A stretch of 64,000 nucleotides of DNA, taken from contig QPGO01000129.1 in assembly GCA_008632985.1 (NCBI GenBank), positions 1 through 64,000 on the forward strand, written 5' to 3'. The position numbers and the translations under genes were made by a program. How positions within the stretch are numbered: position 1 is the first letter of the stretch; every line of letters begins with the position of its first letter. The DNA comes from Psammoneis japonica (taxonomy: Eukaryota). Shown one piece after another: positions 12,671 to 52,050 of the stretch. The notes under the pieces are model-generated. The model ran no database searches, was not told the DNA's origin, and saw only the letters and a list, made by a program, of their open reading frames with translations.

Positions 12671-12680
12671 TGCAAGTTGT

Positions 12681-15900: not shown

Positions 15901-17779
15901 CTTCTTTTAGAGGCACACACACATTGCAACCATGTTTTTGAGCTCAGCTCCATGCCAAAATCACCAGCAAAATGTTTCACACCATCACAGCCAACATTCT
16001 TGATGAAGACACATGAGGGATCGGGGTTGACCCCATTGGCTGACAGCCAAAATGGGGGGGCAAAGTCATTCAATGCCATGGCTGGTTGTCAACTGACTGG
16101 CAACAATGTGCAGAATGCACGAGAGTTGCAGCATTGCACACTCTGACTTTCCATTGTTTGAGGAGAGAGTGCACACTGTTGTGCAGAAAATTGTGCATGT
16201 AAAAAATGCTGAAAAAGCCACAGCCAACTGTGCTGTGCAAACCTGAAAAGTGTGAAGGACCAAGCAAAGGCTCGTTGTGGTGACTTGGGCATGCAAGGGC
16301 AGTGTGGTGCTGTGGGAGCACAGTGGACTGCACGCACACAAGGGCACATGTGTGTGGGAAAGACAAAGTTGAAACCAAGCTCAATTGAAGAGCACAAGCA
16401 CCAGAAAAACTAAATTGTGTGACATGAAAAAGGCAAAAATCCAAACCAAACTGAGTGGTGCATGCATTTGGCCAAAGCTTGTGTTGGGAAAGCTGACTCT
16501 GACATGAGCTGAAACATGTTGTGAAGCAAACGCACTCCCGCTGAATGCTGTCACTGACACTTTGTGCACTTGGGCAGCCAAAGGTTTTGGCGAGTGCTCT
16601 GATGGGTCAAAAAAAGAGAAAAGTGCAGGCAAGGCATTTGTGCAGCAGCAACTTGCCCCCCGGGGCTGGCAGATGTGATGCTGAGCAGATTGCCCAGCAA
16701 AAACTGGCCCAAAAAGGAGAGTTGGGAGCCTCAAAAGGGAGCTGTCTTGAGAGGCGGAGTGCAGCAGGATCAACTCCCAACTCTTCCAGCCCCCTGTGCC
16801 AGCAGTGCTGTGAGATTTGCGTGGACATGCACGTGTGCAACAACACATGTGTTGAGTCAAGCACATTTGTGTGTGCCACAGCCTGTGTGGTTTCCTCAAG
16901 TTTTTCCTCCTTCTGCCATGGGCACTTGTGTGCAACATGTGCAAATTTCAGCAAAATTGCACACAAACAAAAATTGCAGCCAAAGAGCATGGTGCAAACT
17001 GACGAGTGATCAGATCCAATCTGAAAAGTCTCTGAAGAAAAATGGCTGTCAAACAATGCATGCCGATCTGCCTGCTGCTGGTGCCAGTGCTCTCAGATTT
17101 GACAACTGCACACAACATTTGTGTTGAAAATTTCTTGTTGCTCACAAGACAGTGTTCATTGAACTTGTGAAATGTTTGACATGCAAACCAACACACTGAC
17201 ATGGGATTGAGACATTTTAGACAGAAGTGCCTGAAGCTCATTGAACACATTGTTTGGACATCTTTTTCCAGCAGCTTTCAAGTGTTGTCATTCGGACACA
17301 TTTTCTGATGTCAAGTGCATTTTGAGCAGTGCCTCTTGGCACCACCATAATTTGACACAGCATTGGGACATCTGTTTTTGCAAACAAGATTTGTGACACA
17401 AGTGCCCAGGGCCTGGCACAAAGATTCTTGATGGAAAGTCTGCATGAGAGTGCCCCAGTCATGCTGGCTGGTCCGATTTGCAATCGCGCTGAATTGTTGT
17501 GTTGTTTCCATGTTGTTGGGCTTTCATCCTGCCAGTCCTCATAAAATGCATTTCATTGGGAGGAAGCTGAGCATGAGAAGAAATTCATGTGCAAGAGAGT
17601 TGTGCTGTTGCTTGCTTTTGCTCTCTGTGGGGCAGGCGACATCAGAGGTGTCAGCGGAGTTCAAACCAAAGGAACCCACATCCTCCAATGCAAGCAAGAA
17701 TGCAAGAGCAAACTGTTGCGGGGATGGTTGTCTTTTGTTGGTTGGTGCTTGTTCTCACAATTTCTTCTTTCTTTTGTGC

Positions 17780-18860
17780 TTTCACCTTTCCATCAAAGAA
17801 TGTGTTGAATGAAGAAGTTCATGACACTGAAGAAACCCCCGAGAGGGAGGAAGCTGATGGCAAGCTTGTTCATGAGATGCCACAGTGTGCTGATTGCCAG
17901 TTTTGCTTTCTGACAGCTCCCATGCATCACAAGTGCATTTCAGGATCCTTGTCCTCCCAAGGGAGAATGTTGCAGAGCACACACACACCCCCCACCCAAA
18001 TGTGCCATCATCAGTGAAAAGGATTGTGAAGGCAAAGGAGGGCGCCGCACTGGAGACAGGATAAAATGCCGGGCCAACAACTGCCCAAAAGCTTTTGGAG
18101 CCTGCTGTGACCCCCATCCAGATGGACAATGCTTCCTCTTGAGGCCAGCTTTTTGCACATTGAAGAAAGGTGTGTCCAGGATCCACGACAAGCAACGGCG
18201 GTCAATGTTCACTCACATCACTCACACCTGCTGTTCAGCACAATGCGGCTGGTGCAAAATGATCTGTGAAAAGCAAAGAGATGCTCTGAGTGCTTCTGTG
18301 TTCATCAGCAGCCAGGAAGCACCTGCCTGCCCCCTTTCCCTGCCACCCCCGATCTGCGAGCTGGCATTTTCTTGGTGCTGACCTGGCATTGAAAAGAGGC
18401 CACAGCTGCAACAGCATTGCAGCAGAAATGCTGGCCAGGAATGCCATTTCAGTTGTGTCAACACTGGACATTGTGACATTGGGGCTCTTGATGACTGATG
18501 CTTTGGCTGCCTCTGCTCTGCCACAAGCGGCTCTCTCACTTCCTTCATCCTTGAAAGCTGTTCAAGGGAGCATGGCTCCTCCACTGCTTCGAGAAAGCAA
18601 GTTTCCAGAGTCAAACTCAAGTGGTTCTTTGAACCATTGCTGCAAGATGGGTGTCAACCCACAACAGAACAAACACTTTGACCCTGCCAGGGGCTGCAAA
18701 ACTTGCCAGCTAGTGGAAGCTGCCTGTGCCCTGTCGTCGAGCTTCTTCTTGTTCATGAGACTTTTCTCGCTGTTTTTCTCTGCGAAGAAGAAAGTGTCAT
18801 CTGCAGGATCCACAGATGACACTGAGCTGTCACTGGCAATGGCGATCAGTCCCTGCCGGT
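17780..18860 (-). pseudogene. Probable eroded gene divergent from JmjC
   Basis: ORFs 18562-18822, 18235-18471 and 17782-18195 read as one frame broken only by TGA codons (consistent with CGA->TGA); family not recognised. Confidence 0.4.
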
Positions 18861-19231
18861 AGATCGATGTGTAGATGCAATGAATGCGATGATTGGCACA
18901 TCGGCACCCCCATCAGAAATTTCGCGCTCTTTTTCTTTTGCGAATTCGCATCGTCATGGTCGCGGATCGCGGACGATTTGAGTCGTGCGAGAGAAACAGC
19001 CGCATCTTTTCTCTCGCGCTTCGCGTGAAGCTCTAGAGAGCTTGGCGACGCGAAGTATCCGCCCAGTTGTCGTCGTTGCTGATTCCGTCGTCGTTGATAC
19101 ATTTAACGCAGCAGATTGAAAGTAAGAAGCTTGAGACCCCCCTTATCCTTCTTTTGTGAAATTGATTGGAGATACAACATCCTTAAAGTATATAGGAGAA
19201 GTCGTCGGATTGAATTGTGAACTGAAGAGAA

Positions 19232-21242
19232 ATGGCGGTGGCTGCAAAGTGTTGTCGGGCATCATTATGGGCGATTGCTATGCTTCTCTCAGTGAAGGTT
19301 AGAAAAATAACCTCCCTGATTGAAGCCCCTGCACTGAAAGACAAACACAGGCGTAAGGAATCACCGCATCATTCCCGTGGTGTTTCTTCGCAGAAACCCG
19401 GGCTGAGCACGACGGCCCTCCGCGATGCAACTTTTCGCTTGAGCTTGGACTCCTTTCCGAGCGTGGCGGTGATATGAAGGACGAAATTGAGCACTGCGAA
19501 GTTCTCGTGGGTTGCGCTGGAATCACTTTTTACCGGAATCGGCAGCACGACGACGACGATGCTAGCTTTATGGTTCACAACTTTATTCCGAAGGGAATTG
19601 CTACAACGGACGAAGCTGATTGCAGTGCCAACGACGATATCAAGATTGACAACGACGAACAGGATTGGAGACGAATTTATCGTAGCAAAAAGAATTTGTG
19701 CTACATAAGGGAAGGCTGGACAGCAAACATCACGGTGCCGACATACAATCCCATTCCTCGGTTTAGACGAAGCGAAATACTGGTGTCAAACCAATCCGGA
19801 TTGCGTTGGCTTTACCTTTCCAATAGAATCAACGCGCTTGGCTGTAGCAGAAAATATGACATTCTTCACCTCCATTTCAACCATACGTCGTGACGACGGT
19901 AGCTTGAACCAATGGCGAAGCTACATTTCCAACAATCCCGACAGAGCCGGCAACATTGTTTTTCAAAACATCAAACTCATTCACGACGAACTGACCGACC
20001 CGTACAGAACGAAACACTGCTGCACTCGTACAGAGCCTTGCCATCGCTAAAGGAGTTGAAAGCGATGGACAAGTTGGAGAGAGTGTCTTGCGAAAGCCTC
20101 TCCAAAGCTGACTTTCGAGCTCGGTACGAATCAACCCGCCAACCCGTGATCCTCGTGGGGTGCGACTCGACATGGCCCGCTTCACATAACTGGACGCCGC
20201 AACAATTATTCAAACGATTTCGTAATGAAACCAACTTTGTTGGTAGATTTCACAAGAGACTCGGCTATGCTTACAGTATCGAAACCTTGGGTTGGATTGC
20301 AGACGCCATGGCATCGGGTGAAGAATACTACGTTTTTGATAACCTATTATCCGATCCCAGCATTTTCTCGCTTCGCAATGATTTTGAATCAGAACCGGGT
20401 CCGATTGAAGACATGTATCTCAAGCTTGAGGATTTTCCTCCTGGGTATGGCCCGTCACGTTGGTTTACCTTTGGAGGTCCCGGCTCTGGGCTGGTAAGTA
20501 CAGACACAAATGATACAAGTAACAACGGCTTGGTGGGACGAATTGTTGCCGAATCGTATCCAACGAAGCATTCCGTTTTGTTTGTTGACAGCCGCCTCAC
20601 TCTGACCCGATTGCGAGTGATACGTGGAACTACTTGGCTTATGGTCAAAAGTGGTGGGTGCTGTATCCGCTGGAAGAGGAAGACGACCACGACAACTTGC
20701 ATTGCGATGACCGTTGCTCGGCGTACATGTGGAATACAGCGCATTGGTTTGCAACTGTGGGAATCAATGCCGCAAGGAATGAATACGATGCCACAGATGA
20801 TAAAAAGAGACCCATCCATGTCTTACAGAAACCGGGTGAAATCTTGTACATTCCAAATGGTATGGTTCACGCCGAAATGAATCTTGCCCATTCCACAGCC
20901 GTGGCTGCGCTCTTTGCCTCGACACAAAATTTGGAGGCTGTTTGGGGCACTATTGTTGGTCTAGGAGCTGATAAACATTGGAGACGTGTATACTATGGAG
21001 GCATTTTGAACAAGGAACAACGCAGGGTCGTTCGCGACGTCAGCTACGAGTGGCCGCCAGTCGCTGGAGACATGTACTATTTTGACGGCCCGTTTCTTGA
21101 CCCCGCAAAAAGATTAGGAAAAGAAGCAGATGAATACCGGGAATATGATGATGATGATGAAATGTGGGAGGACGACGACGAAATCTGGGACGAAGACATA
21201 GACGATGACGACGCATGGGAGGAGTACTGGGATATAGTTTGA
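19232..21242 (+). CDS. JmjC-domain 2OG oxygenase (JMJD6/JMJD8-like) with N-terminal Cys-containing repeats; frameshifted as assembled
   Basis: RWFTFGGPGSGL|PPHSDP (HxD), YGQKWWVLYP, LQKPGEILYIPNGMVHAEMNL; intron 20494-20591; acidic tail; frameshifts near 19745 and 20040; start codon uncertain. Confidence 0.85.
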
Positions 21243-21629
21243 AATGCGGAGCCACCACTGGATGATTGCGTACTGCTAGGGATTCTCCTTAGATGGTAAG
21301 GCGTCTCTAGAGAGAGAGAGGCTAGAATCCTAGTATTCTGTTTTTACGTTTGTTGAAGCTAGAGTCTTTCGGAGTGGTGATAATTTTCTTTGGCTTCTTC
21401 AAAGGAGCGATGCTCGAAGCATGTTTTGGTTTCGCGCCATAATTTCGAAAAATTGACTGCGGTACAATGAACAACACAAATTCGTATGTAGAATTCGTAC
21501 GAGTTGCTACACAGAAATCCGAGTATCATTTTTGTCAGCATCACACTCCTGTTGTTGCAAATAACGCGTTGTCGAGATCTAAGTTGTTTGATTCTTCGTC
21601 TCTTATGCCATTTTGGCAAAGCAGACACA

Positions 21630-24600
21630 ATGCCCAGTACAGAATCCATATCTAAAGAAGAAGCCGAAGCAGGAAAGGCCTATCGGTGCTCCTGTGAATA
21701 AAGATCCGAAAGCAACGACTTCAACTGCGACAACAGCTCGTCCTAATGCTGTACCGGTAGCTACGAAACCTACTCATAATGCATTGGAGTACCAAGCAAG
21801 AAAACCGAGGCCATAAACCCTTCAAAACGACCTCTTAAGCCAGTCTCCAAGAACAATCAGTCCAAAGCTTCAAACCCACGCAAGTCGTTCAAGGCGCAAT
21901 TGAAACAAGAAATCAAACAGATGAAGCGAGCCAAGGAGTTGGAGAAGCAACGCAAGATTCAGCAGGAACTAGATCGTAAGCGTGCTATCGAAAAGGAAAA
22001 GCGGGACAAAGAATTGAAGATACTTTTGGAACAACACGAAAGAGAGAGACTCGAGAAACAGAGGCAACGAGAGCTAATCGAAAAAGAAAAGGAAAAACAG
22101 CGACTTGAAAAAGAAAAGGAGAAACAGCTTAAATATCAACAGCATATGCAAGCTCAGTGGCTGGCAGCTCAGCAGGAGCAGCAGCCGACTATGCCTTGGC
22201 AAGGCAACGGCTCGTATGGTATGCCGTATGGTGCGATACCCTATGGTGCTCCGATCCACCGGGCGCCGCTTGCCCCCTACCCACACAATCCAACGGTTCA
22301 TCCAAGCGGAGCACCTTTTCTTCCGAATCAATCTATATCACCACTGACAGTTACGGACACTTCACAAGGTTATGCCAGAGCTGCGGCCAACGCGACTGAA
22401 CCTGTTACCCCGACGGTGTTCTCCACACAGCCAAACCCCAAGACGCCGAGCACGAGTTCAATCGGCACGATGTCAAGCGCTGGTGAAGAGAAAGCGGTTT
22501 CGATTCAAAAGTCTGTATTATCCACTAATTCACCAAGTGAAGATGGCCGAGTTACGACGAAAATGGAAGCACAGTCAGAGTCTTCGACCCAGCCGCTTAT
22601 GGATTCGAGGACCACCGCATCATTGACAAACACGCCCGGAACAAAAATCTCGGCTGACCCAGCTGCAGCTACAGATACTCCAACCGCATCTACAGTAGTT
22701 GTGGTGACTCCATTGACCACCTTTTCTCGAGACAACTTGCCTTGCACTCTGCCTAGTGCTCACTGCCACAGCATAAAAGGCCGGCTGCCGTGTACTTCTC
22801 CATCTTCGGCGATAGTCCCTGTCCCCCGCTACAACGATGAGGTGGTTTCAAGAGGTGATTCGAGAAACAATGAACCATCACATCATAGGGCGGCAACTTT
22901 GCCAACTTCGATTGACAAAGTGGCGATTTCAGCTCCTCAATCCGCTGCGAGCCAGGCACTGCTACGGCCTATGTTATCACAAGCCCCCGTTCCTCAACGT
23001 GAATCTCAGGAACAGCGCGCATTCGGACTGAAGCATATGGTCTCGGGTCCCTTTTCTTATGGAACATTACCTCCGCCACACTTCCACCCACCGTGGGGGC
23101 ATTTTCCAGGCGTGCCACCTTTGCCATTTAGTAGTAGTGTCCTTGGCGCATATCCTCATCCTGCTGGAGCAATGGGTGGCCCTGTTGCCCCGATGCACCC
23201 GATTGCATATCCGACGGCGCCTCCCCAAACGAAAAGACAGCCTAAACCAAAACCCCAGGTACTTCATGCCGATCCAATGTCACATCCTTCACCATATGCC
23301 GATAGCCATGTACTTGTTGCGGAACCGATCATCATCACCAAGGCTCGTGGAGGCTCTTTTGGGGTCACAGTCAAGTACGAGATGCAAAGCACGCTGGTGG
23401 AGCCTCCTCCTACGGTTCTTACGCCAAACTCGGCTTCAACTGTCCAAGTAGCGCCCGTGGTACCAAAACGAGAGGTTGATGCACCCTCACAAGCTAGTAC
23501 CGCCGCGCCTATCGTGAAGCCTGTAATCAATGAGACTGCATCGGCACCCAAAAGTTCTCAATCTGAGGTGGAAAAGAAACAGGTCGTCGACGCTGATCGT
23601 AATGCATCCATGGATATCCAAACTGAGAAAAATTTGTCGAACCTGTCCACGAGCGTCCCTCCGAAAAAACAACGCCGACCTCGTCGTACGCGGGTTTTCT
23701 TTGGTACAATGGGTGTTGCGAATGTATCGAAGCAATACGCTGGAAAAGATACCATTGATCCAAAGGCAAGGTTGCAACCTGGTGATATAATTTTGAAGAT
23801 CAACGGACAAAGTACGGCTGGGTTGCTTTTTTCCGAAGCGTGTACGCTCTTTGCCACGGACGTTGCGCCTTCAGCACCTGCACATACTGATCAGCAGGAG
23901 ATTAAGTGCGCTGTTGAGGTCGCAAGGCTCGTACGGAAGCCAACACAAGGTGCCGTTCCCGGCACAATAGTCAACCAAGGAGTCCAGAATGGTTTTGGTA
24001 CTCTGCTCCAGCCAACAAAGGATGAGCCTGTCGCTCCACCGATTCCCAAGATACCGTTGTTCATAGACAAAGGTAGAACTAAAGTGTTGTCTGGGGAGTT
24101 TTCAAACCCGGAAATGACAGCATTGATCAAAGCGGTAGTCGCTTCTCTTGGTCGTGCCGACCGTGTCTTGGGTTTCGAATCGTCGTTGCAGAGTTTTGAC
24201 CATCAGCGCAGGCAATACTCAGCGTTGGATCGACGCGACCTTGACACTCTGAAGCTACGATGGTCTCACGAGACCTACTATGCCACTTCGACAGCGGCAT
24301 CCGTTGCACGTGACTACTGGATGAGCGAGTGGAAAAAGGAGCTGTCTCGATCCAACTCCGATGATGCGGGTGTGCCATTTCAGTTCTTGTCAGACGCACA
24401 GCGGTGTAGTATGCGCGCCTTGCCGAGACCTGCAAACGGATGCAAGTGCAGAAGCTCCAATCACCAACACGTACACGACCTAAATTGTGTGCTATATCGC
24501 AACATTCGGCACTTGAGAAAGCCTGTTAGGTTGACTACCGAATCATCATCTCCAGGCGTCAAGAAAAGCCGCTTACCAAAGAATTTGAATGCTGTTGAAA

Positions 24601-25774
24601 CTGCGTACAAGGACCGTTTCTTGAAGCTTCGAAGTGAGCAGGAGTTGGATCGTGATGAAGCTAGATTTGTACAAGAAATGGAAGAGATTCAACTGAAACA
24701 GTTGAAAATGGCTGTATTCCCTCCTTCCCTTACGGCAATGGTACTAACTGCAGTGGTCGAAACTGCTGACGAAAGTAGCGAGGAAGCGGAAGAAATTGAA
24801 ATTACAATGCAAAACTCGAAACAGAATGAAGTTGCGAAGACAAGCGTCGTGACAGAGTCTATCAATGACGACAGTGATAGTTCAGATGACGAAGACGACG
24901 ACCTGCCTCTGGTTGCGTTAGGAAAGCGTAATGTATCTGGATCGTCCTCTCCTCCTTTGGCCAAGAAGGCGAAAGTCGAGACTGCCAACCTGAGTTTCAA
25001 TTTGGATTTCTTATGTAGGGTATTGCGGCGAATTAGCCAAACTTGGGGCCACGTATTCATGGAACCGTCTCACATTGACTATGCATGGTGAGTGTGACGA
25101 TACACTTGCTTCCTACTATGAAATATTTTGACCTTAAATAACAAGACTCTTTGCTTTCTTTTGTTAGGAAATGGGAAGTTTATCGAGGCCAAACTGGTCA
25201 TCATGTTGGATACGGCGAAGCGAAAAAGAACCCAAGAGCTCCTGAGTCGCTTTCTTTCGAGAACGTCAAGTTTGCTTTGGAAGGAAAGAAGTTCTCTAGT
25301 TTAGCCAAGTTTGAACCGGAATCATTAGGCTACATGCCCACCGCGTCAGATCCAATCACTCCCGAAACTAAAGACTTGGCATTGTTGACTCACCTCCTTT
25401 CACCACTGGGGACTGGTCTCTATGATGAGCTTGCTGCTCTTGTACGTTTAAAAGTGCTTCAGGTGACTCCTCGTGGAATCGCAACGTTGGCCAAGGATTG
25501 GTACACAAACGTTGACCCGCTGCTTCTCGAAGACATGCACGAAAAGTGGTCCGTTTCGTCTCCCACAAATCACGAGTGCTTTTGCGTCTCGGATCTTGTA
25601 AGAACAACTCTGGAGAAGAATTGGATAAAGGTTTCAGGTGGCTGGGCGTTTGCGGACAATCCAGAGGATGTGGTCTATGAAGATGAGGAATACAGCGAGT
25701 GGCGGCGTTCTTTCCAAGACGATCATCAAGCACAAGCAGACAATGCCGAAGGAATCGGCAAGTTTGGTTTCTAG
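21630..25774 (+). CDS. Large low-complexity protein with coiled coil and PDZ-like domain
   Basis: 1063-aa ORF plus last exon (intron ~25089-25168); GGSFGVTV and LQPGDIILKINGQS PDZ-like motifs; apparent 1-nt frameshifts near 21634 and 21780 (VQNPYLKKK N-terminus). Confidence 0.78.
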
Positions 25775-27109: not shown

Positions 27110-28348
27110 CTAACTAAGCTGTCTGCCTTCCTGCAATTGAATTTCTTTCGCTCTCATGGCTCGTGCTTCTTGTTCCGCCCAAGGACATGCTTTGTAAAAA
27201 TCGCATCTTTGTTTATCTTGGTTTGACGATGATGGGGAACACGAATAGTAGTATCTACCCGTACGACTGGCTTTTAGTTTGGCTTCGATCCCGCAATGAC
27301 ACTTGGGATGCTGAATCATGTCGGAGCGAGTCATGCGAAAGGTGAGTGAAATCCGCACCTTGTTTACCAGGGGATGAGATGCAATACTCGTGTTGGCAAC
27401 TCGTGGTACCCCGTGCTGCCATTGCTCTTGACAATTACCATACATGATAATGGCTGAATTATGCGGCATGGTTATGTTCACAGTAATTGTCTCTTTCGAT
27501 TTCTCATCACTTTGTTGTTGCAATCGAAACGTACGCATCGCGCCAAGACTGAGTCCTGCAATAATTGGCCGCGGTCCAAGAGGGTTCAAAAAGTCAGAAT
27601 GCATGCCAACGGTTTCGTTTCCATCTTGATAACGGTTTGCCAGACAAAAATTAGACTTCCAATTTCGATCGCCGCTTGTAGAAACCTTTGACACAATGGG
27701 AAGCTCCTCTCGGACCAATTGATCAATAGCGGCAGCGGCTTTTGTCAACTCTGGAAATGACGCAAGCTTCTTGTTTCCAATTTCATAGTCGTCTTCGGAG
27801 TCAGGAGGCTGATGATCAGTTTCAGGCAAGCCGAGTTGATATGTAGCGGATGTTCTCGGTACTAGATGCGTTTGATCAAAGACTGTCCACGAAACACGCG
27901 GTCCCCATCTTGTCGGGCATTCAACCGTTTCGAGTCGATCCAACAAGGAATCAGCAAGCTTTTCGGGTAGTACATTTCTCTTGAATACTGCAGGACAGTA
28001 ATTGCAAAGGTCTTGGTCTGAAATACTTTTTCCATCCACTTGAATCGGCGCTGATGGGAGTCTAACGAGGACGTCGTTCAGACAACATGCTTTCTTATTG
28101 CTGGATGCCTTATTCGATTGCTTCAAAAGTTCAGGTCTCTTCAGTGTTTTCTTTGAATTCGTTTGACTCTTTTCAAAAAACTTGGAGACCTTCTGATTGC
28201 CCATGCCGTTTCGTCTCGTGGTGATACCAACCTGCTTTTCGTCCTCAGCATGCCGTTTTGTATTGCACATTTCACACTGCAGAAAATCCTTCTTATCGGC
28301 ATCATGTTCAAAGGTACAGGCACGACAAGTCCACGAAGCCAGCGACAT
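27110..28348 (-). CDS. AlkB-family 2OG-Fe(II) dioxygenase with RanBP2-type and GRF-type zinc fingers
   Basis: WTCRACTF..CEMC; CLANRYQDGNETVGMHSD, LSLGAMRTF, WQHGVP, RISLTFR; C-terminal CHCG...YYYSC...CDFY. Confidence 0.9.
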   Translation of the reverse strand: MSLASWTCRACTFEHDADKKDFLQCEMCNTKRHAEDEKQVGITTRRNGMGNQKVSKFFEKSQTNSKKTLKRPELLKQSNKASSNKKACCLNDVLVRLPSAPIQVDGKSISDQDLCNYCPAVFKRNVLPEKLADSLLDRLETVECPTRWGPRVSWTVFDQTHLVPRTSATYQLGLPETDHQPPDSEDDYEIGNKKLASFPELTKAAAAIDQLVREELPIVSKVSTSGDRNWKSNFCLANRYQDGNETVGMHSDFLNPLGPRPIIAGLSLGAMRTFRLQQQSDEKSKETITVNITMPHNSAIIMYGNCQEQWQHGVPRVANTSIASHPLVNKVRISLTFRMTRSDMIQHPKCHCGIEAKLKASRTGRYYYSCSPSSSNQDKQRCDFYKACPWAEQEARAMRAKEIQLQEGRQLS

Positions 28349-28644
28349 GGTGCATGGATCTATTATCTGCTTCTTTCACCGCTCATCCCTCATCCACATC
28401 TCGTTTCGTCTGAGAGGAGCTGTTATCAGGTTTAGGCGTGCATTCCATCCACTAAGTCGCGATGATGTGCGTACGTCCGTCATCCGCATCGCTGCGAACG
28501 GCACCCCGCGGCGCACGCGGCACGCGGCACCCCCCGAACCCCGAAATCATCGACCATGACACAAAATGAGATATCACCGACCGCAGATCATCATGCGCTT
28601 GGACTACAAAGCAAAGAGTTGAGCATAGCTATCCATCAAAAACT

Positions 28645-29962: not shown

Positions 29963-30727
29963 ATGGATCATGCAGAAACAGAGGCAAAAACTCCGCAAGA
30001 AGGCAAGAAAAAGCGAAAGCGAGATGAGAGGGACGATCCTCTAAAAGAAGCGTACAGAAACATAACTTTTGAACCACGCACTTCCAGTGGTCGACCTGGA
30101 TCTCCTCATCGTTTCTTTAAATCGTCATTTTCAGTCAAGTACAAAGATGAAAAGCTAGGCAGAAATCAAACGGTGTGTGAGCAGCACTCCTCGCCCGGTA
30201 CCCATCAATCCAAAGAGGCTCACGTAGCGGCGCAAAGCTCTGCAGTCTCCCCAATTACGGCAGAAGATATCCCAATACAGCAGGTCGTACATCAACATGC
30301 AAATGGCTTATGTGTCATTACTGTGGGAGATTCGATAAAGTGGAAGGACAAGAGTTTGGGTATTGACATGTGTGCCAAGGTGGCTCCTGAAATGAGCGCT
30401 GCGGAACGACGAAAAAGTCAATCGAAAATGCTAAAGCGCAAGACTTTTGAAAAGAATGGTAGCCATGGAATTGCTACGCCGGAAGGTATACTGTGTTATT
30501 TAGATATTGGGGGAGTGAAGCGACCGATATACGGGTGTGTGTGGGGTCACATTTTGGAAATCAATACAAAGTTAACACCGGAACTATTGCAGAATGATCC
30601 ATTGCTTGACGGATATGTTGCGATCGTGCTGCCGATTGGACCATTCCCTCCCTTGCAAGCTGAAGCAGTTAATGACAAGGATGAGCTGGACTCGAAATCA
30701 CGAAAGAAAGAAACGGGCATTGCATAG
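29963..30727 (+). CDS. Abitram/FAM206A (Simiate)-like protein
   Basis: HANGLCVIT and IYGCVWGHILEINTKL..PELLQNDPLLDGYVAIVLP. Confidence 0.8.
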   Translation: MDHAETEAKTPQEGKKKRKRDERDDPLKEAYRNITFEPRTSSGRPGSPHRFFKSSFSVKYKDEKLGRNQTVCEQHSSPGTHQSKEAHVAAQSSAVSPITAEDIPIQQVVHQHANGLCVITVGDSIKWKDKSLGIDMCAKVAPEMSAAERRKSQSKMLKRKTFEKNGSHGIATPEGILCYLDIGGVKRPIYGCVWGHILEINTKLTPELLQNDPLLDGYVAIVLPIGPFPPLQAEAVNDKDELDSKSRKKETGIA

Positions 30728-32903
30728 TCTGCTACTTAAGAGAATGGTTTTTGCTTCCAATCTCTAGCAGTGATACTTTCTTACATGCACAAGTGCTCTT
30801 TTACAGCTTTGTCAAGTCTAAAGAATGGCATGCTACAACTCTTGCACTTGCTTGCTTCTTGCGTCTTTCTGGGGCTCGGGCGCCTTCAACCAATGATCCC
30901 TGCTTCAACACAATCCAGCAACCTTTGCACTCTGCATTGTCATGCGTCTGCAAAGAAAGCACTCTGCACACAAAATTCTCACATGAAAACAACCAACAGC
31001 GTGATGACTTCACGAAGGTGCACAAAAAGGAAACAGCAAAAGAGAACAAAAAAGGGAATGCAGACAGCGAGGAATCACACTGTGTTGTGTTTGATCTGCA
31101 TTGCATGATTTGCAACACACAGGCTCTTTTTCAAGGAAGCAGCATGTTCACATGTGTTCACAATTTTGCAGTGGAAACTGTGTCATTGGCAGATCAATGC
31201 CAATTGATCCACTTGGGCTTCTCACAGCTTTCAGCCCATGTCCAAATTGCCAAAGTGCGTGCCTCTGACAACTCAAAGTCTGGCATCACCCATGACGTGA
31301 AGCCCTGGCCACCAAAGAACTCTGACTGAAGATTGCTCATGCAAAAAAATCAACAAACAGCAGCTTTGCGTGTGGTTCCTCTGAGCCAAAATGCCTTTTA
31401 ATTGCGCTTTTGTCCACAGCAGCAGTTTTTTCCGGTCTTTGCACCAAGTTTTTTCTGCGCGTGCTGTGAGCCATGTCTGGACAGCTGCAACAACAAGAAA
31501 TGAGCAAACTCAACAAAGCACCCACTGCAAAGAATCTGAAGCATGGACTAAAATGACTGGCAGGGAGGCACATGTGTGATCTCATTGTGCTCTTGTTGAG
31601 CTGCAATGAGGCCCACCTGGGGTGCTTGCAGGCACCTTGTTGCTTCTTGTTTGTTCGTTGCAGACGGCTCTTGACATGCCCAACTTGGCAGCAAGCACAG
31701 GACATGAGGTGAAAACTTTAACACTCTCAGAATTGTGAGTGCTGACTGACTTTTTTTGCTTGATGTTGCTGGCTAACTCATCATCATTTCTTTTCTTCTT
31801 GGAGGGGCAGTTGGGGGTGCTGACAAGGAAAGACAATGACAGAGCTCTTGAATGCCTTCAAAGCTGTTGTTTTTTTGAACAGACTGTTGCTCTCATTCCC
31901 AGAAAAGCAGGGTGCAGTGGGTCTTTGCTTTTTGCAGCATTTTGTGAGCCTTGCATTGCTGGGCAGCTTTGGTGCTTTGATGGGCCCTGCAGTTTGGAAA
32001 TTGGGCATGACTCAGTGGCATGTGTTGTGGCAAGTGAGTGGCAGCCACATGACCTTGAAGGACCTGGTGTGGCAGGGCACTGCATGGCACCAGCCACACC
32101 TGGCACCAGGAGCCACAGCAGCAGTGTGCACAAGTGCTGTGAGCACAGCACCCCTTGGGAGTTGAGAGACGATGAGGCAGCCCACCTCTGGAGTGCTCCA
32201 GAAGCAGGGGGTGGAGGAAAGACCACAGCAAGCCCTGCGCAGCAATCTTGAAATTGGCAAGTGCTTCTTTGCTTGGGATCAGGGTTGGGCTGTGACCCCT
32301 CAGTCTGCTCTCAAGCAAAAGCAGCAAGAGCATCAACTTCTCTTGGTCATCAGCTCATTGTCCAAAATCTCATTTGTTGCCACATGAAAAACTTTCTCCT
32401 CATGAAACTCATGCAGATCCAAAGAGGTGACAAGCCAGCCAAGCGCCAGTGCATCTGGCAACAAAATTGCTGCCCAAGAAGGGAGGCTCCACCCATGTGC
32501 TCAAAGTCACAGAGACACCACTGCACCCCAACAGCAGCAATCATCAGCATTGGACCATGCAAATGCTGTCACCCACTCCTTGCCATGACCATCTGAGCAA
32601 GAACATTTGCTGCCACCATCACTCTTCAACTGCTCTTCAACTTGTTTGTTCATGGCTTGCTGGCTCTGCTGCACAAAACAGCAGCACACAACCACAGGAA
32701 GGAGTTTTCATCTGTTTTTGGATTTTCTCTCACCCTCTCTTTTCATGGGTGCACTGGTCAGAGAAAAATGCAGCACACACCATGTTGTCATTGGAATTTT
32801 TGGAGGCTTGGCAGCACAATTGAGCACTGGCTGTTGCTGCCATCAAGGTTGGCATGTGTTTCATTTGTGGTTTGTCTCAGCAAGCAAAATTGTCTGGGCA
32901 TCA

Positions 32904-34225
32904 AAAGATGCACACTTGTCTGGGCATCAAAAGATGCGCGCGCGACTTGTTCCAGACTTGGGTGCGCTCACGCGCGAAAAAATGACCCTTTTTGCATGAA
33001 ACGTGCGGTCCACACTTGCGGCACCATTTTCAATGGTAAAAAAAGACAATTTTCAAATGTGTTGTCATGGGCAGAGCAGAATGCAATTCAAGGCCCGGCT
33101 AAGAACTGCACCTGTGAAGACAACACAATGCGCGTGCATTTCGCTTTTTTGTTCATTTGTGTGAAAGATCTTGTTGAACTTGTCAGAAAAAAAATCACCC
33201 CGCTCTTCCAAATCTGCACAGTTGATGAGTTTTGGCGCGTGAGCCAAAATGTCCAACGAGCCAGGAGGATGACATGGTCATGATTTAAGGCCCTCCACAT
33301 CACATGCGCAGAATTGGCACTGCGTCCCACGTGGGATCCCCACATCGCATCGACACGACACAAAAGATGCGCCATGGCGCCGCCAAAGAAGCCTTCGAAG
33401 ACAGAAGAATGTGCTCCATCATGCTTGTTGACTGTGTCATCTTTGTTCCTGAAGGTCAGCACAGCAAGGAGAAACCAGTTGAAATTTTCAAAAGCTGGAA
33501 GAGTTCAATGAGAGGCGCCGGAGAAGCAGAGGAGAGCTGCGAGGAGCAAGGCCAGTCAATCCATGGGCTGCTCAGGATCCATTCATGCGTGTCGACATGT
33601 TGAGGATTGGTGCAGTGTTGTTCATTCAGACCTCCATTTGTGGTGGCACAGTCATTTTTTTGCAGCTGCACTGCAGGTGGAAACGGCCGTTGACCATTCG
33701 TCGCGCACTGTTCCCGTCATGTGTTTGTGGAGCTCGTGCCTCGAATCCATCATTTGAGCCTGATGGCACAAGGGCCTTTTAAATCACGCCAGGCCTTAAA
33801 TTGCGCTCTGCTCTACATGCCGGTGCAGAAAGGTCTTGTGCGTGTGCCCATGCATTCGAAACTGTGGATGGACTCAGTTGTTGGTCGCTAAATTGCGCCG
33901 CAAGTTGAGAGCTCTGTTTTCCGAGGAGCGATTTGCAGATGTCTCAATGTGTGCAGAAATGCACAAAATGTTGTTCTCACATGCAAGTTGAACCTCTAAC
34001 ACAACACAATTAATCTTTGGCTAAAATGCGCGAACACAACTGTCATTCAACGGATCGAGTGAAACATGCGTTGATCAATGAGTTTCGGACGTGAGAAGAA
34101 GGGCAGCTCAGCCCACGCAGTGGCATCGACTTCGGACCATTTTTCACTGTTTAAAAGGCAAAAACGATTGATGCACTTCAATCAGTCGAATGTGTTGAGG
34201 AAATGTTCATGGCAATGGCAAAGAA
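32904..34225 (+). repeat. ~1.3-kb direct repeat, copy A
   Basis: Highly similar to 34972-36295; differences are mostly CG/TG/CA/TA transitions. Confidence 0.95.
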
Positions 34226-34971
34226 CGTGTCAGTGAAAAGGCAAGCTCAGTGGCAGAGCTTCGCCGATCGCAGGACGAGGTCGAGGGTTCGAGCCCCTCC
34301 CTTTTTCCGCACACACGTGCTTGAACCGGCAACCCGGAAACGGGTTGAGGTCACTTGCTTGACGAAGTCGCCCCACCTGCATTCGACAACCCTGACAAAC
34401 ACAAGACGTGTTCCAGCCCCAGGTGATGCACAAAACGACAATCGGGTTTTGAGCACAATTTGTGCATGTTTTGGTGCATGTGGCATTTTGACAAAAACAC
34501 TTGGACGGATTGACTTTCACAGGCTTCTGGAGCATGCACATTTGAACAGTTTTTTGAGGGGTGTTCAAATCCTCATGGGACATGCATCACAAACTTCCTC
34601 AGCAGACTCAGTGCTGATTGCACGTCAGTGGATTTACACTGAGATTTTTTTGCAGGCAGAAAACCTGCCAAGCAGCATCGTAGAAAAATGTGTTTGGGTG
34701 ACATCCAAACAACGGCAATGTTTTTGTCGAAAATCATCCGTTGCACTGCGAATCTTTTGACGCAATGAAAAACATGGATGGCACAATGACAATGACATTG
34801 CAACACTCACACGAGTCTTGTTGGTGTTGCAAAACATTTGTGTTTGTGTGAATCTGTGCTTTTTGTGGTGAAAGTTCGATCGCAAGTTGGGGGCCGCGCA
34901 AAAATCACGCAAATGTTGTTTTTGTGCACGATTTGGTTCACGTGCGGCTGGAACACGTCACAACAAACAAC

Positions 34972-36295
34972 AAAGATGCACACTTGTCTGGGCATCAAAA
35001 GATGTGCGCGACTTGTTCCAGACTTGGGTGCACTCACGCGCGAAAAAATGACCCTTTTTGCATGAAACGCGCGGTCCACACTTGCGGTGCCATTTTCGAT
35101 GGTAAAAACATGACAATTTTCAAATGTGTTGTCATGGGCAGAGCAGAATGCAACTCAAGGCCCGGCTAAGAACTGCATCTGTGAAGACAACACAACGCGC
35201 GTGCATTTCGCTTTTTTGTTCGTTTGTGTGAAAGATCTCGTTGAACTTGTCAGAAAAAAAATCACCCCGCTCTTCCAAATCCGCACAGTTGATGAGTTTT
35301 GGCATGCGAGCCAAAATGTCCGACAAGCCAGGAGGATGACATGGTCATGATTTGAGGCCCTCCACGTCACATGCGCAGAATTGGCACTGCATCCCACGTG
35401 GGATCCCCACATCGCATCGACACGACACAAAAGATGTGCCATGGCGCCGCCAAAGAAGCCTCCGAAGATGGAAGAATGTGCTCCATCATGCTTGTTGACT
35501 GTGTCATCTTTGTTCCTGAAGGTCAGCACAGCAAGGAGAAACTGGTTGAAATTTTCAAAAGCTGGAAGAGTTCAATGAGAGGCACCGGAGAAGCAGAGGA
35601 GAGCTGCGAGGAGCAAGGCCAATGGATCCATGGGCTGCTCAGGATCCATTCATGCGTGTCAACATGTTGAGGATTGGTGCAGTGTTGTTCATTCAGACCT
35701 CCATTTGTGGTGGCACAGTCATTTTTTTGCAGCTGCACTGCAGGTGGAAACGGCCATTGACCATTCGTCGCGCACTGTTCCCGTCATGTGTTTGTGAAGC
35801 TCGCACCTCGAATCCATCATTTGAGCCTGACAGCACTGGGGCCTTTTAAATCACGCCGGGCCTTAAATTGCATTCCACTCTACACACCGGCACAGAAAGG
35901 TCTTGTGCGAGCACCCATGTGTTCGAAACTGTGGATGGACTCAGTTGTCAGTCGCTGAATTGTGCCGTAAGTTGAGAGCTCTGTTTTCCGAGGAGCGATT
36001 TGCAGATGTCTCAATGTGTGCAGAAATGCACAAAATGTTGTTCTCACATGCAAGTTGAACCTCTAACACAACACAATCAATCTTTGGCTAAAATGTGCGA
36101 ACACAACTGTCATTCAACGGATTGAGTGAAACATGCGTTGATCAATGAGTTTCGGACAACGTGAGAAGAAGGGCAGCTCAGCCCACGCAATGGCGTCGAC
36201 TTCGGACCATTTTTCACTGTTCAAAAGGCACAAATGATTGACGCACTTCAATCAGTCGAATGTGTTGAGGAAACACACATGGCAATGGCAAAGAA
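34972..36295 (+). repeat. ~1.3-kb direct repeat, copy B
   Basis: Highly similar to 32904-34225. Confidence 0.95.
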
Positions 36296-36673
36296 ATGGT
36301 CCTTGGAGGCAAATTGTGAGTGAGTTGAGGCTCAGTTGTTGTTGCTGACAGATTCAGTGTCATTGTGCCGCGCTGCAGCCTGCAACAAGCATTTTCACTG
36401 TTGTTGTTGATGCCTTGGACCATGTCAAATGCGGAGGTCCTCGTCATGACATCAAATTTTCCACAAGGCTGAAAAAAGTGGGCCGTCATGGTCACTGAAA
36501 GCCATGGCCGGTTTGGCTGTTTGTTTGTTCGAGTTCATTCTGTTTGTTTCACTTGTGAGCAATTTACATGATCAACACAATGAAACATGTGCGATGTTGA
36601 ACAAAGCACAAAAAATTGTTTTTTCTGCAAAAAGGGGCATGTGCGCGCCACCCAAGTCTGGAACAAGTCGCGC
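35006..36673. mobile_element. Putative non-autonomous TIR DNA element
   Basis: 25-bp GCGCGACTTGTTCCAGACTTGGGTG at 35006-35030 (also at 32940-32964) has a perfect inverted copy at 36649-36673, plus a subterminal inverted match ATGACCCTTTTTGCA / TGCAAAAAGGGGCAT; no TSD or transposase recognised. Confidence 0.55.
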
Positions 36674-38219
36674 CTCTGCCAGAGACAATGGTGCATTCTT
36701 CTGGACCAGGTCAGGCACAGACAGAAAGCAGTGTTTGAAATTGATCCATTCATCAAACTTCAAATGATTGTTCAAATGTGGAGATTTTGCTGTGATCATG
36801 AGTCACCTCCTCATGAGCTGGCCAGCCTGCATTGATTTTGGTTTCTCTGTCATGCTTTGAGTTTTTTCTTCTCTTGTCTTGTCCCACCAACAGAGACAAT
36901 CATGTGTTCATCAAGGCAGTGTCTCAATGTCTTGGTCAAATCACAAAATGACACAAAGCAGCACTCTTCACCCAGCAACAAATCTGCTGTTGCATTTGTT
37001 GATGACTCCACTGAAAAATGGGGCCATGGCAGCTGCAACAGAAACTTGGTAATTTTTTTCATGGTTGTTGTCATGATGTGCCGGCATGGTGGCATGAAGT
37101 CATTTTGGGACCCGATTCTGAGTGTGGCTCAGGTGTCCCATGTCTTTCAAGTTTGCTTGGATTGTTTGAGAGCTCCAGTGAAAAGACTTTGATGGCCAGT
37201 GGTTTGTTGAAGGTGAGCAGGGCTTTGGACAAAGAAATTGTCAGAAAAGAATGTGGCACATTCAAGGTGTTGTTTGACCGTCATGTTGAACTCAACAGGG
37301 TCTCCTCTTCAAGACAGAAAGACCATCAAGTGTGGGTTCTCAGGGTTGGATCTTTTGCTCCTTGGGCAGAAAAATGTCCTGCATCAGGTCAACACCCGAA
37401 TGGCAAATTTGCAAAAGGCTTTGTGGCACATGGGTTCAGGCCAAAGAAGCATGCAACAGAAAGCTGTGACAGAGATGACACTTGGGATCACCAAAATGCA
37501 AAAGGATTTTGCTTGCAACTGTGTTGTGCTGAAGGAAAACAAGCTTGCCAATGAGAAACAAAAGATTGCTGATGACAAGGCAGTCTTTGGGTCTGTGAAA
37601 CTGGACAAATCACCCACTGGCACATTGTGTGGCATCACTCAACAATTGTTGAACATTGATGACAGCATCGACAATGAGATGGAATCTTGTGTCAAACAGA
37701 AAAAAGTTGTCAACATGCACTCAGCATGCTTGGTGATGTGGCCACAGCTTCATTTGCTGCACTGTTTGCTCCTTGACACATTCATCATTTGGATGATTTG
37801 CAGGATGGAAGCTTGAGCAAGGAGTCAGTGCAGCTGGCTCACTTTCTGCATTTCCAGATGATGACACAAATTCAGATCAGTTTGTGTTGTTGCTGTCACC
37901 CCAAACCCAGCTCTGTTCATGCTGTCACTGTTGCGATCATTTGCTCCTCCTCAACACATTTGTCACTTGGGCGATTTGCATGATGGAAGCTTGAGTGATG
38001 AGCGGGCATGATTGGCTTGCTTTTTGCAATTGCTGTGAATTGCAATGCAAACTCAGATCAGTTTGTGCTGTCACCGTCACCACAAATTTAGCGCTGTTTG
38101 TGCTGTTGCTGTCACTTTCTCCCGGACAAATGATTTTGACTTGTTGCATCTTTCAACGATTTCGTAAAATCCAAAGCACATTCCGCCCTTTGAGTCTGTG
38201 GCACCATGGCAGAACAAAG

Positions 38220-38900
38220 TCATCCAACTCCAGCAACAGCGGCTTGGCCCTTTTTTCAGTGGTGAGTGGATGGGTGCCTGTGCTGGAGCAATGGCTGTGG
38301 CTCACCCTTTCATTTTGGCACACGACTCTGCCCACCTCGGCACCATGAACTGCTCCGTTTCATCCCAATGACTCTCTGCTGCTCCTGCCATTCTTCTCTT
38401 GGACAACAAGGCAGCTGTTCAGATGAGCGTCAATGACCAGCAGACCAAAGTGCACGAGCCACATTGATCGAAGTCACCAACATGTCCGAGAGGGGCACCA
38501 GTGCGGCCATCATGTCCTTGTTTGGATCCCAGCAGAATCTCAACTCTCGGACATCCTCACAAAAACTCAGGCCGCCGAGAAGATCTGGATCATGGCAGAT
38601 CGTGCTCTTTGGCATCTCCCTGCATGCATGACCTCTGGCCAGCAGAGCTTCATCCCACATTCCACCATTCAATTCAGGGGGGGGTTGACAGGAATCGACC
38701 GTCATCACGGTCGCCACTGTCAATGGCCGACCGTTGTCAAGGTGGCTGTTAGAATCTCATGGCTGAGCAATGCCCACAGTCAGCTGAGAATGACTGAACT
38801 GTTTGTTTTGCGTGGGAATGATTTTTATGAAATCTGCTCCGTGCTTGCCGACTGTTTTCAATCAGTTCTCGGTTCAGAGACTGGCTCTGAACCTCTCACA
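38220..38900 (+). mobile_element. Ty1/copia (CoDi-like) remnant: RNase H, polypurine tract and 3' LTR
   Basis: GEWMGACAGAMAVAH, ILLLDNKAAVQM, TSHIDRSHQHVREG, LVWIPAESQLSDILTK; PPT AGGGGGGGG at 38676-38684; LTR-like TGACA...CA ~38686-38900. Confidence 0.85.
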
Positions 38901-49960: not shown

Positions 49961-50671
49961 ATAGCTATACAACAGAGGAGCGGCCGATCGCATGCTGTAG
50001 TAGTGCCATCCGGTTAATATTCTAGTAGTGGATCTTTTATTTTAATGCATGTCATACGTGTGGGTGCTTCGTCCCGTCGACCATAGCTAATCAATGGTGT
50101 TCACTCTCTACAGGGCTCTGTTTATCTCCATCTTGCGCATGGAAGGAGATTAGTCTACCCGAGAACCATGTCTGTCATGCCACTCGGGTTCGTGATCGCA
50201 TGCTCAGGGCCGACAAGAATGCGGAAGATTCAAACTCTTGGTTTTCAGGTTCTTCGGGAAGAAAGGAAAAGAGATGGGTGGTTGCAGCGCTTCTTTTCTT
50301 GTTTGTACCCACATTTTTCATTGAGTTTTTCTTTGCACTGAGTCAGCAGTTTCTCGTGGAGGGGGTGCTGATCCCTTTGCCATTGGACACCAACCAGATT
50401 GGGCGCAGTTCTTGTGCTCACCACACTGGACGCGTGTACGGAACGATTGCGGCTTTCATCTGCTTCCTTGACAACATGTTTGCTTGAGCCATTCATGTGG
50501 ATCCAATCGCCACAGTGAAATCCTGCACCGTCCATTCTCGCATCGCATCGATTGATCAACACTTGTGTGAGGATTAGACAGCTTCACCAGGTGGCCACAG
50601 GAGCAAGCCAGCTGCTGTGAAAAGCAGATGCCATGAAGTGGCTGACAGACAGATGGAAAAAGAAGCCAAAC

Positions 50672-51102
50672 ACAGTGTGGCACAACAATTCTGCTTCAGG
50701 CAAAGTGCGAAATGCACTGCTCCATCACACCACACCCTGCCACCGGCACAATGTAAGAAGAGTCCATGACATGAAGAAAGTGCCAAACACGTGCTTGCTG
50801 TTGGGGGTTTTCAATGTGCAGGACAACTGCAGCACTGACAAGACTTTAAGAATTGGTCCTCTCCATGAAAACACCTGCAAAGATCATTGTCCATGTTGCT
50901 CCACACAGAAGCTGAATTCAGTGGCATGGTGCAACAACTCTGCATCAGGCAAAGCATGCTGTGCACCACACCATCACACCACTGTGGTGCACTGCAAGAA
51001 CGTGCTTGCCATTGGGGTGTTTTCCAATGTGCAGAACACCTGCAGCGCTGACAAGACTTTAAGAGTTGGTCTCGCTGAACCTGCAAAGATCATTGTCCCA
51101 TG
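50672..51102 (+). repeat. Diverged tandem duplication (~200-250 bp units)
   Basis: AACAA(T/C)TCTGC(T/A)TCAGGCAAAG...CTGACAAGACTTTAAGA...CCTGCAAAGATCATTGTCC occurs at ~50672-50895 and ~50920-51102. Confidence 0.8.
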
Positions 51103-51449
51103 TCACTGTCTCTCTTCCCTCCATGGCACATCCTGTCAATTCAAACAGAAACTCCAGGGCTGTGTCTGTGTCACCTAAAAGGATCCACCAACTGAAGACC
51201 CAGCACAAGACATGCCATTGTCACACTGCCCAAGGGAGCAGATGGCACAGCACTGAAATGACTGAACACATTCCAGCCACAAAAATTGACAAATTTCCAC
51301 TGTTGATGGTTGAGCACTGTTGCTCATTGTTCAGAAGGTTGCAGCATTGTTTTTCTCCTTTGACCCATTGTGACAAGGACAACTCATTGCAAGGAGGAAG
51401 CAGGCAATCAAGTTGCCCACCCTGGCAAAAACTGGCAGTGCACCCAAGC

Positions 51450-52050
51450 AAGTTCCAATCAGCATGTAAATTTGTTGATCAGTGGAGATTGAATCTGTCA
51501 ACCTGCACTTTGCCAAGCTCTGCCAGGCAGGTGCAAAGCAACACATTGTGTGGTTGAGAGAACATCCATTTGCTCAGACTGACCCAAGTGCAAATGCTTG
51601 ATGCAGAACAACTCAACAGTGTGTCAACATTTTGATGATCATCAGCAAACTTGCAACAAAAGCTTTGATTCTCACAGGAGGGTGTGTGCACATGACATGT
51701 GGGAGATCACATGTGCTGACAGCAACAGCAGGTTTGCAGGCATGGGCCATGTCACAGATTCATGTGCAGCTGGCTGAACATGTTGCAAAAAGAAGTAAAA
51801 AGATTGGGTCAATTCATTGAAACACACAGCCATGCAATCCTCTTGAGTGATCTCTGAAATGGCATTCAGCCATTTTTCTTCCACTGCATTGCACAAGCAC
51901 ATTTCAAAATTGACAAACAACTCAGTGCCACAAATCAAGTCATGCCATGCATGTGCTGTTTGTCGCAGGTGGCTCACATGCTGTGACTTCTTCTCTGGTT
52001 TCACCTCGCAGCACAGTTCCTTCAATTGATGAAAAAGGAGTTCAAGCATT
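51450..52050 (-). mobile_element. Possible gypsy gag remnant
   Basis: GTELFVNFEMCLCNAVEEKWLNAISEITQED resembles gag-region motifs of stramenopile gypsy elements (from memory, unverified). Confidence 0.4.

Follow-up and report, generated by a model that had tools for sequence, protein, structure and literature searches.

The closest described counterpart of the locus reported here is the TpA-directed hypermutation of the chlorarachniophyte Bigelowiella natans where, according to the accessible text of a recent preprint, 231 of the 302 mutations recorded in mutation-accumulation lines fell into two integrated viral regions (Mettrop et al., bioRxiv 10.64898/2026.01.13.699255). The same text reports that 230/231 of these were A>G or T>C, with all GC-biased ones placed on TpA by the authors, that the hypermutation rate was ~6e-7 per site per generation (~1000x baseline), within a de novo range of ~1e-7 to 1e-6, and that the process was seen in 11/15 lines, i.e. 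was episodic. It also describes 124 clusters of TpA-poor, CpA+TpG-rich 1-kb windows in the 85-Mb callable part of the genome, defined by consecutive windows having TpA rho <= 0.43 and CpA+TpG rho >= 1.52, and proposes an ADAT2-like DNA adenine deaminase, citing reports of DNA activity for TadA and ADAT2-ADAT3 deaminases (bioRxiv 10.64898/2026.01.13.699255). In the literature on TpA hypermutation we found this preprint only and none for diatoms, the other precedents being repeat-induced point mutation (RIP) and CpG decay. Here, we characterise a 64,000-nucleotide stretch of Psammoneis japonica, a diatom-like lineage (assembly GCA_008632985.1, contig QPGO01000129.1, positions 1 to 64,000, forward strand; hereafter the window), and within it a pair of neighbouring repeat copies, A and B (Table 1). 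We consider it likely that this genome exists in two states, with silent islands subject to in-place transition processes at TpA and at CpG, and that A and B are independently eroded copies of a multi-copy element.

The window is clearly two-state, with four sharply bounded islands making up ~26 of its 64 kb. Counted per kb, the islands hold 0–9 TA, 3–49 CG and 194–256 TG+CA, and the gene blocks hold 25–59 TA and 40–71 CG. When compared over 25,654 bp of islands and 35,405 bp of gene blocks, the observed/expected ratios (o/e) were 0.05 versus 0.58 for TA, 0.28 versus 0.99 for CG, 1.81 versus 1.19 for CA and 1.75 versus 1.17 for TG, with base composition equal in the two compartments (G+C 0.48 in both). 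Runs of 3–10 consecutive 1-kb island windows contain 0–9 TA, the core of the largest island at 11000–17000 retains 49 CG and 9 TA in 6001 bp (TA o/e 0.02), and the flanks of the repeat pair carry 8–16 CG and 2 TA per kb. This depletion is not genome-wide, since o/e values are 0.66 for TA and 1.05 for CG in gene-block DNA outside long open reading frames (ORFs; 11,150 bp), and 0.64 and 0.95 at the codon position 3-1 junctions in gene blocks. TA and CG depletion switch jointly at the island edges, within 100–200 bp, the compositional edges lying near 9150, 19050, 30850, 38850, 50250, 53250, 54900 and 60050. Because these boundaries coincide, both processes are directed to the same domains, whether or not their chemistry is distinct.

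The direction of change was established from a host gene fragment that occurs in the window twice, as an unmutated copy just outside the largest island and as a hypermutated old copy inside it (Table 1). The former consists of an upstream region and the 5' part of a gene whose JmjC/cupin-like matches are weak, all below Pfam cut-offs; the two copies share 77% identity across 980 aligned columns, and 55 of their differences are transversions. When the island copy was read against the normal one, 15/31 TA sites became TG, 10/31 became CA and 0/31 were kept, while for CG the figures were 27/66 to TG, 26/66 to CA and 1/66 kept. With 25/31 TA and 53/66 CG converted in this manner, the islands are ordinary sequence driven to TG/CA. 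TG<->CA swaps at 12/132 TG/CA sites of the old paralog would be expected if newly formed TA or CG kept getting erased. Such site-by-site conversion in a host-derived paralog argues against the view that the islands arose without any mutation process, whether as DNA of foreign origin or under selection whose native state is TA/CG-poor, or as an artefact of assembly or base calling such as mis-joined alleles.

The paralog also bears on the comparison with RIP and CpG decay. As with RIP in Neurospora and other Ascomycota, transitions at particular dinucleotides erode mobile or duplicated DNA, and islands of altered composition remain; however, RIP makes TpA from CpA and lowers G+C, whereas here TpA is destroyed, CpA and TpG pile up and G+C is unchanged. 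Unlike in RIP, the unmutated partner is spared and keeps its 36 TA and 73 CG, so targeting is by place and not by homology between copies. The conversion of CG to TG/CA in silent repeat DNA, and the contrast in CG o/e between islands and gene blocks, resemble the decay of CpG through deamination of 5-methylcytosine (5mC), but this covers the CG half only and offers no route to A:T>G:C at TpA. Most simply, CG>TG/CA would be a second, overlapping process.

We then examined the repeat pair, in which the same changes can be followed between two closely related copies. A (32904–34225) and the part of B in common with it (34972–36295) align in 4 blocks over 1320 columns with 94.5% identity. Transitions account for 66 of the 72 differences, and 56 fall where A and B alike have a pyrimidine-purine (Y-R) dinucleotide, a pattern far from chance. 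The original prediction, made from the letters of the window, had listed five sites at which one copy keeps TA where the other has TG or CA, and all five were correct on realignment: TA in A and TG in B at 33286-7 and 33889-90, TA in A and CA in B at 34011 and 34152, and CA in A against TA in B at 33901/35968. The reciprocal examples that it quoted (GCACC/GTGCC, ACCAG/ACTGG) are likewise present among 12 reciprocal CA/TG sites altogether, the CG-versus-TG/CA sites that it reported number 27 (13 CG/TG and 14 CG/CA), and its figures of ~11 TA and ~55 CG for 33001–34200 became 11 and 56 on recounting. The remaining site classes comprise 48 CG/CG, 7 TA/TA, 2 TA/TG, 3 TA/CA (5 TA-versus-TG/CA sites with the former), 114 CA/CA and 114 TG/TG. 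In total, A contains 64 CG and 11 TA in 1322 bp, and the shared part of B 60 CG and 8 TA in 1324 bp.

Derived Y-R changes private to one copy number 25 in A and 31 in B, with TG/CA outcomes of 14/11 and 13/18, respectively; both copies were hit independently after they diverged. The two outcomes are in balance, and permutation tests gave no sign of strand-coordinated runs (p = 0.53, 0.82 and 0.65), a further difference from RIP; sites are struck singly, on either strand. Mutation on both strands after the copies had separated, as originally claimed, therefore stands on these private changes, while the local duplication from which it was said to follow is probably the wrong starting point, for the reasons given below.

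A ~60-nt end common to the starts of A and B recurs, inverted, at the far end of B (Table 1), and on this ground B is a ~1.7-kb element with terminal inverted repeats, of which A is a copy truncated at 34225. The inverted-repeat pair I3/I4 is 25 nt long and 100% complementary, and I7/I8 is 20 nt long and 85% complementary. Contig depth was taken from the one public sequencing run that covers this stretch, as short contigs, in which single-copy DNA lies at ~60. Most island DNA is at single-copy depth. In comparison, the summed depth of the A/B copies is 480–900 (8–15x), and that of a short element lying between them (inverted repeat I6, 22 nt, 91%; CG o/e 0.77, TA o/e 0.05) reaches 11,561–23,620; both are multi-copy, as their depth is far above ~60. 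A and B are thus probably two copies of a multi-copy transposon-like family. At 33882-3, where A has TG and B has CA, the contigs with an adenine at 33883 hold 1781/1898 depth units of the family, and no change at 33882 is listed among 40 of the 77 contig rows, so that the family majority at this site is TA.

The arrangement of the pair bears on the artefact explanation introduced above, which had also been named at the outset as what would undo the interpretation of A and B. No contig of the public run spans A, the spacer and B, so their order rests on the assembly, and the sample behind the run may be the very one that was assembled. Nonetheless, the sequences before A and B, and those after them, show no homology to each other, which argues against mis-joined alleles; a depth of 8–15x single copy indicates a real family; and run contigs reproduce the TA-free flanks with 0–2 other letters, one contig of 11,058 bp matching 30500–32933 with 2 other letters and 1 gap. 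Taken with the conversion in the host-derived paralog, this leaves native composition or artefact a very unlikely explanation. The 25-nt inverted-repeat end gave 0 exact matches in metagenome contigs, and a purine/pyrimidine-recoded self-comparison of the window added no hidden repeats to the BLAST pairs. Just past the truncated end of A, a short segment with a T-arm-like motif resembles by eye the 3' half of a tRNA (Table 1), and this segment may be what is left of a tRNA-derived element; neither ARAGORN nor Rfam returned a tRNA or RNA family there or anywhere in the window.

Table 1 Coordinates of the features discussed in the text
Feature	Position	Strand	Remarks
Copy A of the repeated element	32904-34225	+	left inverted-repeat end 32940-33001; no right end (truncated at 34225)
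Copy B	34972-36675	+	part in common with A 34972-36295; left inverted-repeat end 35006-35067, inverted right end 36621-36673
Very high-copy short element between A and B	34405-34959	.	555 bp; inverted ends 34405-34426 / 34938-34959 (I6)
Island with the repeat pair	30900-38800	.	TA- and CG-poor, TG/CA-rich, sharp edges
Largest, most eroded island	9200-18900	.	TA/CG-poor, TG/CA-rich
Third island	50300-53100	.	TA/CG-poor composition
Fourth island	55000-60000	.	TA/CG-poor composition
Hypermutated old copy of host gene fragment, in largest island	11658-12666	+	from self-comparison; 7 CG and 1 TA in 1009 bp
Unmutated counterpart, just outside largest island	19176-20214	+	73 CG and 36 TA in 1039 bp
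Segment resembling a tRNA 3' half	34240-34310
Two adjoining ORFs matching an amiloride-sensitive sodium channel	4120-5610	-	ASC/ENaC-type; E = 1.6e-30 and 2.5e-22
ORF of 1103 aa in gene block	21780-25088	+
AlkB-like 2OG-Fe(II) oxygenase gene	27113-28375	-	Pfam 2OG-FeII_Oxy_2, E = 2.7e-27
ORF of 332 aa in fourth island	55929-56924	+
Purine-rich segment of fourth island	58000-60000		GC skew 0.32, AT skew 0.20
Island-like start of the window	1-503		followed by N run 504-935

The sequence context of the changes was dissected by counting A>G on both strands of the paralog comparison. Grouped by the 5' base, A>G occurred at 25/64 adenines after T, 22/161 after A, 17/133 after C and 16/139 after G (55/433 for all non-T); with the 3' base considered as well, the counts were 19/36 in T-A-Y, 6/28 in T-A-R (R, purine), 42/193 in V-A-Y (V, any base other than T) and 13/240 in V-A-R. 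TA loss thus favours T-A-Y, and the TA survivors of the islands independently follow the same rule: relative to gene blocks, TA survival was 0.28 in Y-TA-R, 0.053 with mixed flanks and 0.006 in R-TA-Y (chi-square 102, p = 6e-23), and the island/gene-block ratio per trinucleotide together with its reverse complement rose from 0.01 for TAT through 0.04 for TAC and 0.09 for TAG to 0.20 for TAA. The pair is in keeping with this ranking, with 6/7 of its shared TA having A as the next base, the slowest context, and 7/12 of the reciprocal sites having R-YR-Y flanks, the fast class for TA. Among CG survivors, R-CG-Y is enriched.

These counts help in weighing whether TA loss could be a by-product of CpG methylation, with T:G mismatches from deaminated 5mC attracting an error-prone patch repair that leaves polymerase-eta-like A>G changes. 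The coincidence of the TA and CG depletion boundaries within 100–200 bp would fit such coupling, as would the restriction to transitions, seen on either strand. A>G at W-A (W, A or T) is the preferred error of polymerase eta. However, a 5' A gave no boost over C or G in the paralog, TA falls to its minimum of 1.5 per kb in the very DNA where little CG is left (8 per kb), the TG<->CA swaps in the old paralog imply continued erasure of new TA or CG, and the TpA process of B. natans runs with 1/231 changes other than A>G or T>C in the accessible account (bioRxiv 10.64898/2026.01.13.699255). We therefore regard a repair-coupled origin as quite improbable. Polymerase-eta-type W-A mutagenesis, considered as a candidate cause in its own right, was rejected: it predicted a rise of A>G after both T and A, and none was seen after A (22/161). 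The claim that TA erasure is separable from 5mC deamination accordingly gains from the B. natans spectrum and from TA being erased where CG is nearly gone, with the caveat that the shared boundaries place both processes in the same domains.

An alternative in which RNA is the substrate, with ADAR-like A-to-I hyperediting fixed through reverse transcription, is close to refuted. ADAR prefers a 3' G, and T-A-G is struck less than T-A-Y here, opposite to that expectation. In addition, the affected copies resemble DNA transposons in their terminal inverted repeats, two neighbouring copies have diverged in place, the host gene fragment was hit with its upstream region included, and erasure is essentially complete (0/31 TA left). 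What speaks for RNA editing is a 5' U preference, described as typical of A-to-I editing enzymes in the accessible preprint text (bioRxiv 10.64898/2026.01.13.699255). The changes at this locus are made at the DNA level, in place, strand-symmetrically and in a motif-dependent manner.

Strand symmetry also makes A>G and T>C indistinguishable, which would equally suit a process aimed at thymine, in which a TET/JBP-type dioxygenase marks the T of TpA as 5-hydroxymethyluracil (5hmU) or further oxidised forms that mispair with G and yield T>C. 5-Formyluracil mispairs with G. A precedent for the targeting comes from the dinoflagellate Amphidinium, where, in the accessible text, TET/JBP-made 5hmU is reported to concentrate on repeats and to coincide with 5mC (PMC11572971); at the same time, that text describes high-5hmU elements as less diverged, not eroded, and we consider this explanation unlikely. 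N6-methyladenine at ApT was rejected as a cause, given that, in the species studied, it marks active genes with no ApT depletion (PMC12695648).

We next considered the relative pace of the two losses. The pair retains 45–48 CG per kb against ~56 in gene blocks (~83%) and 6–8 TA per kb against ~40 (~18%). As point estimates, each copy has lost 22–25% of its CG and 60–70% of its TA, or ~89% for the sensitive class, and compared with the local background the rates are ~64–155x for TA and ~17–20x for CG. As CG loss per copy is 22–25%, CG could supply only ~2–3 of the 12 reciprocal sites, and the probability of at least 12 arising from CG is 2e-5 under homogeneity. The oldest island DNA has come down to 8 CG and 1.5 TA per kb. 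TA loss looks 3–9 times faster than CG loss, a ratio that the pair alone does not formally prove, and these data are best read as TA loss outpacing that of CG. The contention that TA loss outruns CG loss is accordingly borne out by the densities and point estimates, but a model of the pair alone (see below) falls short of it.

When set beside B. natans, in so far as the accessible preprint text allows (bioRxiv 10.64898/2026.01.13.699255), the locus shows the same TpA>TpG/CpA transitions on both strands (25/31 TA in the paralog), similarly limited to delimited, apparently silent regions with the rest of the genome ordinary. Repetition is not needed in either case, the giant-virus region of B. 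natans being single-copy and most island DNA here lying at single-copy depth. The footprints are alike when island aggregates are used (TA 0.05, CA 1.81, TG 1.75) in place of the exact B. natans per-window formula, and the TpA frequency of 0.0018 in a subset of B. natans coding sequences is near the 1.5–4 TA per kb observed here. Several features differ. The lineage is diatom-like; the affected DNA is denser and more saturated (~26 of 64 kb versus 124 clusters in the 85-Mb callable part); and the DNA hit comprises inverted-repeat elements together with a fragment of a host gene, no viral genes being detected among 117 ORFs. CpG decay is co-located here and goes unmentioned in the accessible preprint text, and the 3' preference for T-A-Y over T-A-R is undiscussed there. 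Mutation was observed live in B. natans, whereas here it is read from a sequence footprint. We believe that the signature is best filed as the same as TpA hypermutation in B. natans, of which it would be a second, much more extensive instance, new in its lineage, saturation, target range, co-located CpG decay and extended T-A-Y motif.

A number of observations weigh against this interpretation. The spectrum is not near-exclusively A>G/T>C, as CG>TG/CA is just as prominent (53/66 in the paralog, 27 sites in the pair); B. natans is, by the accessible account, essentially without C>T (bioRxiv 10.64898/2026.01.13.699255), so the two systems may not be alike, or the island changes may combine two overlapping processes. 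A-Y steps that lack a 5' T likewise show elevated A>G, and 'TpA only' is too narrow a description at this locus. When the pair by itself was fitted with a homogeneous Poisson model, equal loss of TA and CG was not rejected (2dlnL, twice the difference in log-likelihood, = 1.13; intervals 0.17–0.38 for CG loss and 0.40–0.77 for TA loss), the inequality being non-significant because the ancestral state at the 12 reciprocal sites had to be deduced. The high-copy short element is already TA-free yet CG-rich, and for that reason part of the TA poverty may have been inherited from already-eroded source copies and not gained after insertion. Lastly, a Pfam scan of the 117 island ORFs of at least 90 aa (in ~26 kb) gave 0 matches at the cut-off and two weak ones below it, leaving the island targets without a viral or transposase domain.

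Overall, we propose a genome composed of two kinds of DNA, ordinary gene blocks and sharply bounded silent islands, where two DNA-level transition processes would act in place, site by site and on either strand. The first would be a TpA-directed A:T>G:C process that turns TA into TG or CA with the preference T-A-T > T-A-C > T-A-G > T-A-A, and the second a CpG process that turns CG into TG or CA, most likely through deamination of 5mC. In this scheme, the pair would represent two terminal-inverted-repeat copies that landed in an island and have eroded independently since, and for this reason would catch the process half-way. As to the enzyme, we tentatively favour a TadA/ADAT2-type adenine deaminase that would act on DNA and be aimed at chromatin domains, possibly with a function in defence. 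The natural target of TadA and ADAT2-ADAT3, A34, comes after the conserved U33, and this U33-A34 target would correspond, by analogy, to the T-A context on DNA. To our knowledge, no TadA/ADAT2-ADAT3 activity on algal chromosomal DNA has been demonstrated.

The window is gene-dense outside the islands and includes genes for a CPSF100-like protein, a G-protein beta subunit, a sulfatase, an AlkB-like oxygenase and an ASC-type channel. Among the best 120 hits of the G-beta protein, the 8 that are organism-named are all from diatoms, at 48–58% identity, and none exceeds 60%; this sets the organism apart from B. natans, for which identical (100%) protein matches would have appeared. Around the G-beta relatives, 24 loci of at least 2.5 kb (of 80; ~199 kb) had no 1-kb window with TA o/e < 0.2, a weak negative in that metagenome assemblies rarely include repeats. 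The AlkB-like gene, in gene-block DNA with an island on either side, encodes an enzyme of the type that repairs or demethylates nucleic-acid bases, with no evidence of a link to the island process. The two adjoining ORFs that jointly match an ASC/ENaC-type channel seem to be one gene split by a short intron or frameshift; this family is unusual for a diatom-like alga. A 1103-aa ORF in a gene block has no Pfam domain and no relative at E <= 1e-5 in a word-indexed protein search.

Within the islands, many long spurious ORFs are present because TA-free DNA has lost the stop codons TAA and TAG; one of them, the 332-aa ORF in the fourth island, had 0 relatives among 1.84 billion representative proteins. 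The end of the same island has a strongly purine-rich strand, and its sole tandem repeat is 12 nt in 2 copies. The very start of the window, before the N run, is island-like (4 CG and 4 TA in the first kb); islands are evidently hard to assemble, and this one ends at a gap in the assembly.

Before the 2026 preprint, which concerns a single chlorarachniophyte, hypermutation of chromosomal DNA targeted to A:T>G:C was unknown. Its signature in a diatom-like genome would mean that the process is not confined to one species, would show it able to erode silent DNA to saturation, and would extend its targets to ordinary mobile elements and host fragments in silent domains. The T-A-Y motif is directly checkable against candidate deaminases and, together with the link to CpG decay, makes the mechanism testable, while young copies that are CG-rich and TA-poor and old DNA without both offer a natural time series. 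With TGA as the sole stop codon in TA-free DNA, the resulting long spurious ORFs can mislead gene finders and repeat annotation. As a more speculative extension, TpA-directed DNA adenine editing might be widespread in the SAR supergroup (Rhizaria and stramenopiles), aimed at chromatin-defined silent domains and not at viral or repeated sequence in itself, with a T-A-Y preference that mirrors how TadA/ADAT enzymes recognise U33-A34 in the anticodon loop, and working alongside CpG methylation. On this view, such editing would have cleared more than 95% of TpA from ~40% of the 64 kb studied here. If that were true, it would be a major, unrecognised shaper of diatom genomes.

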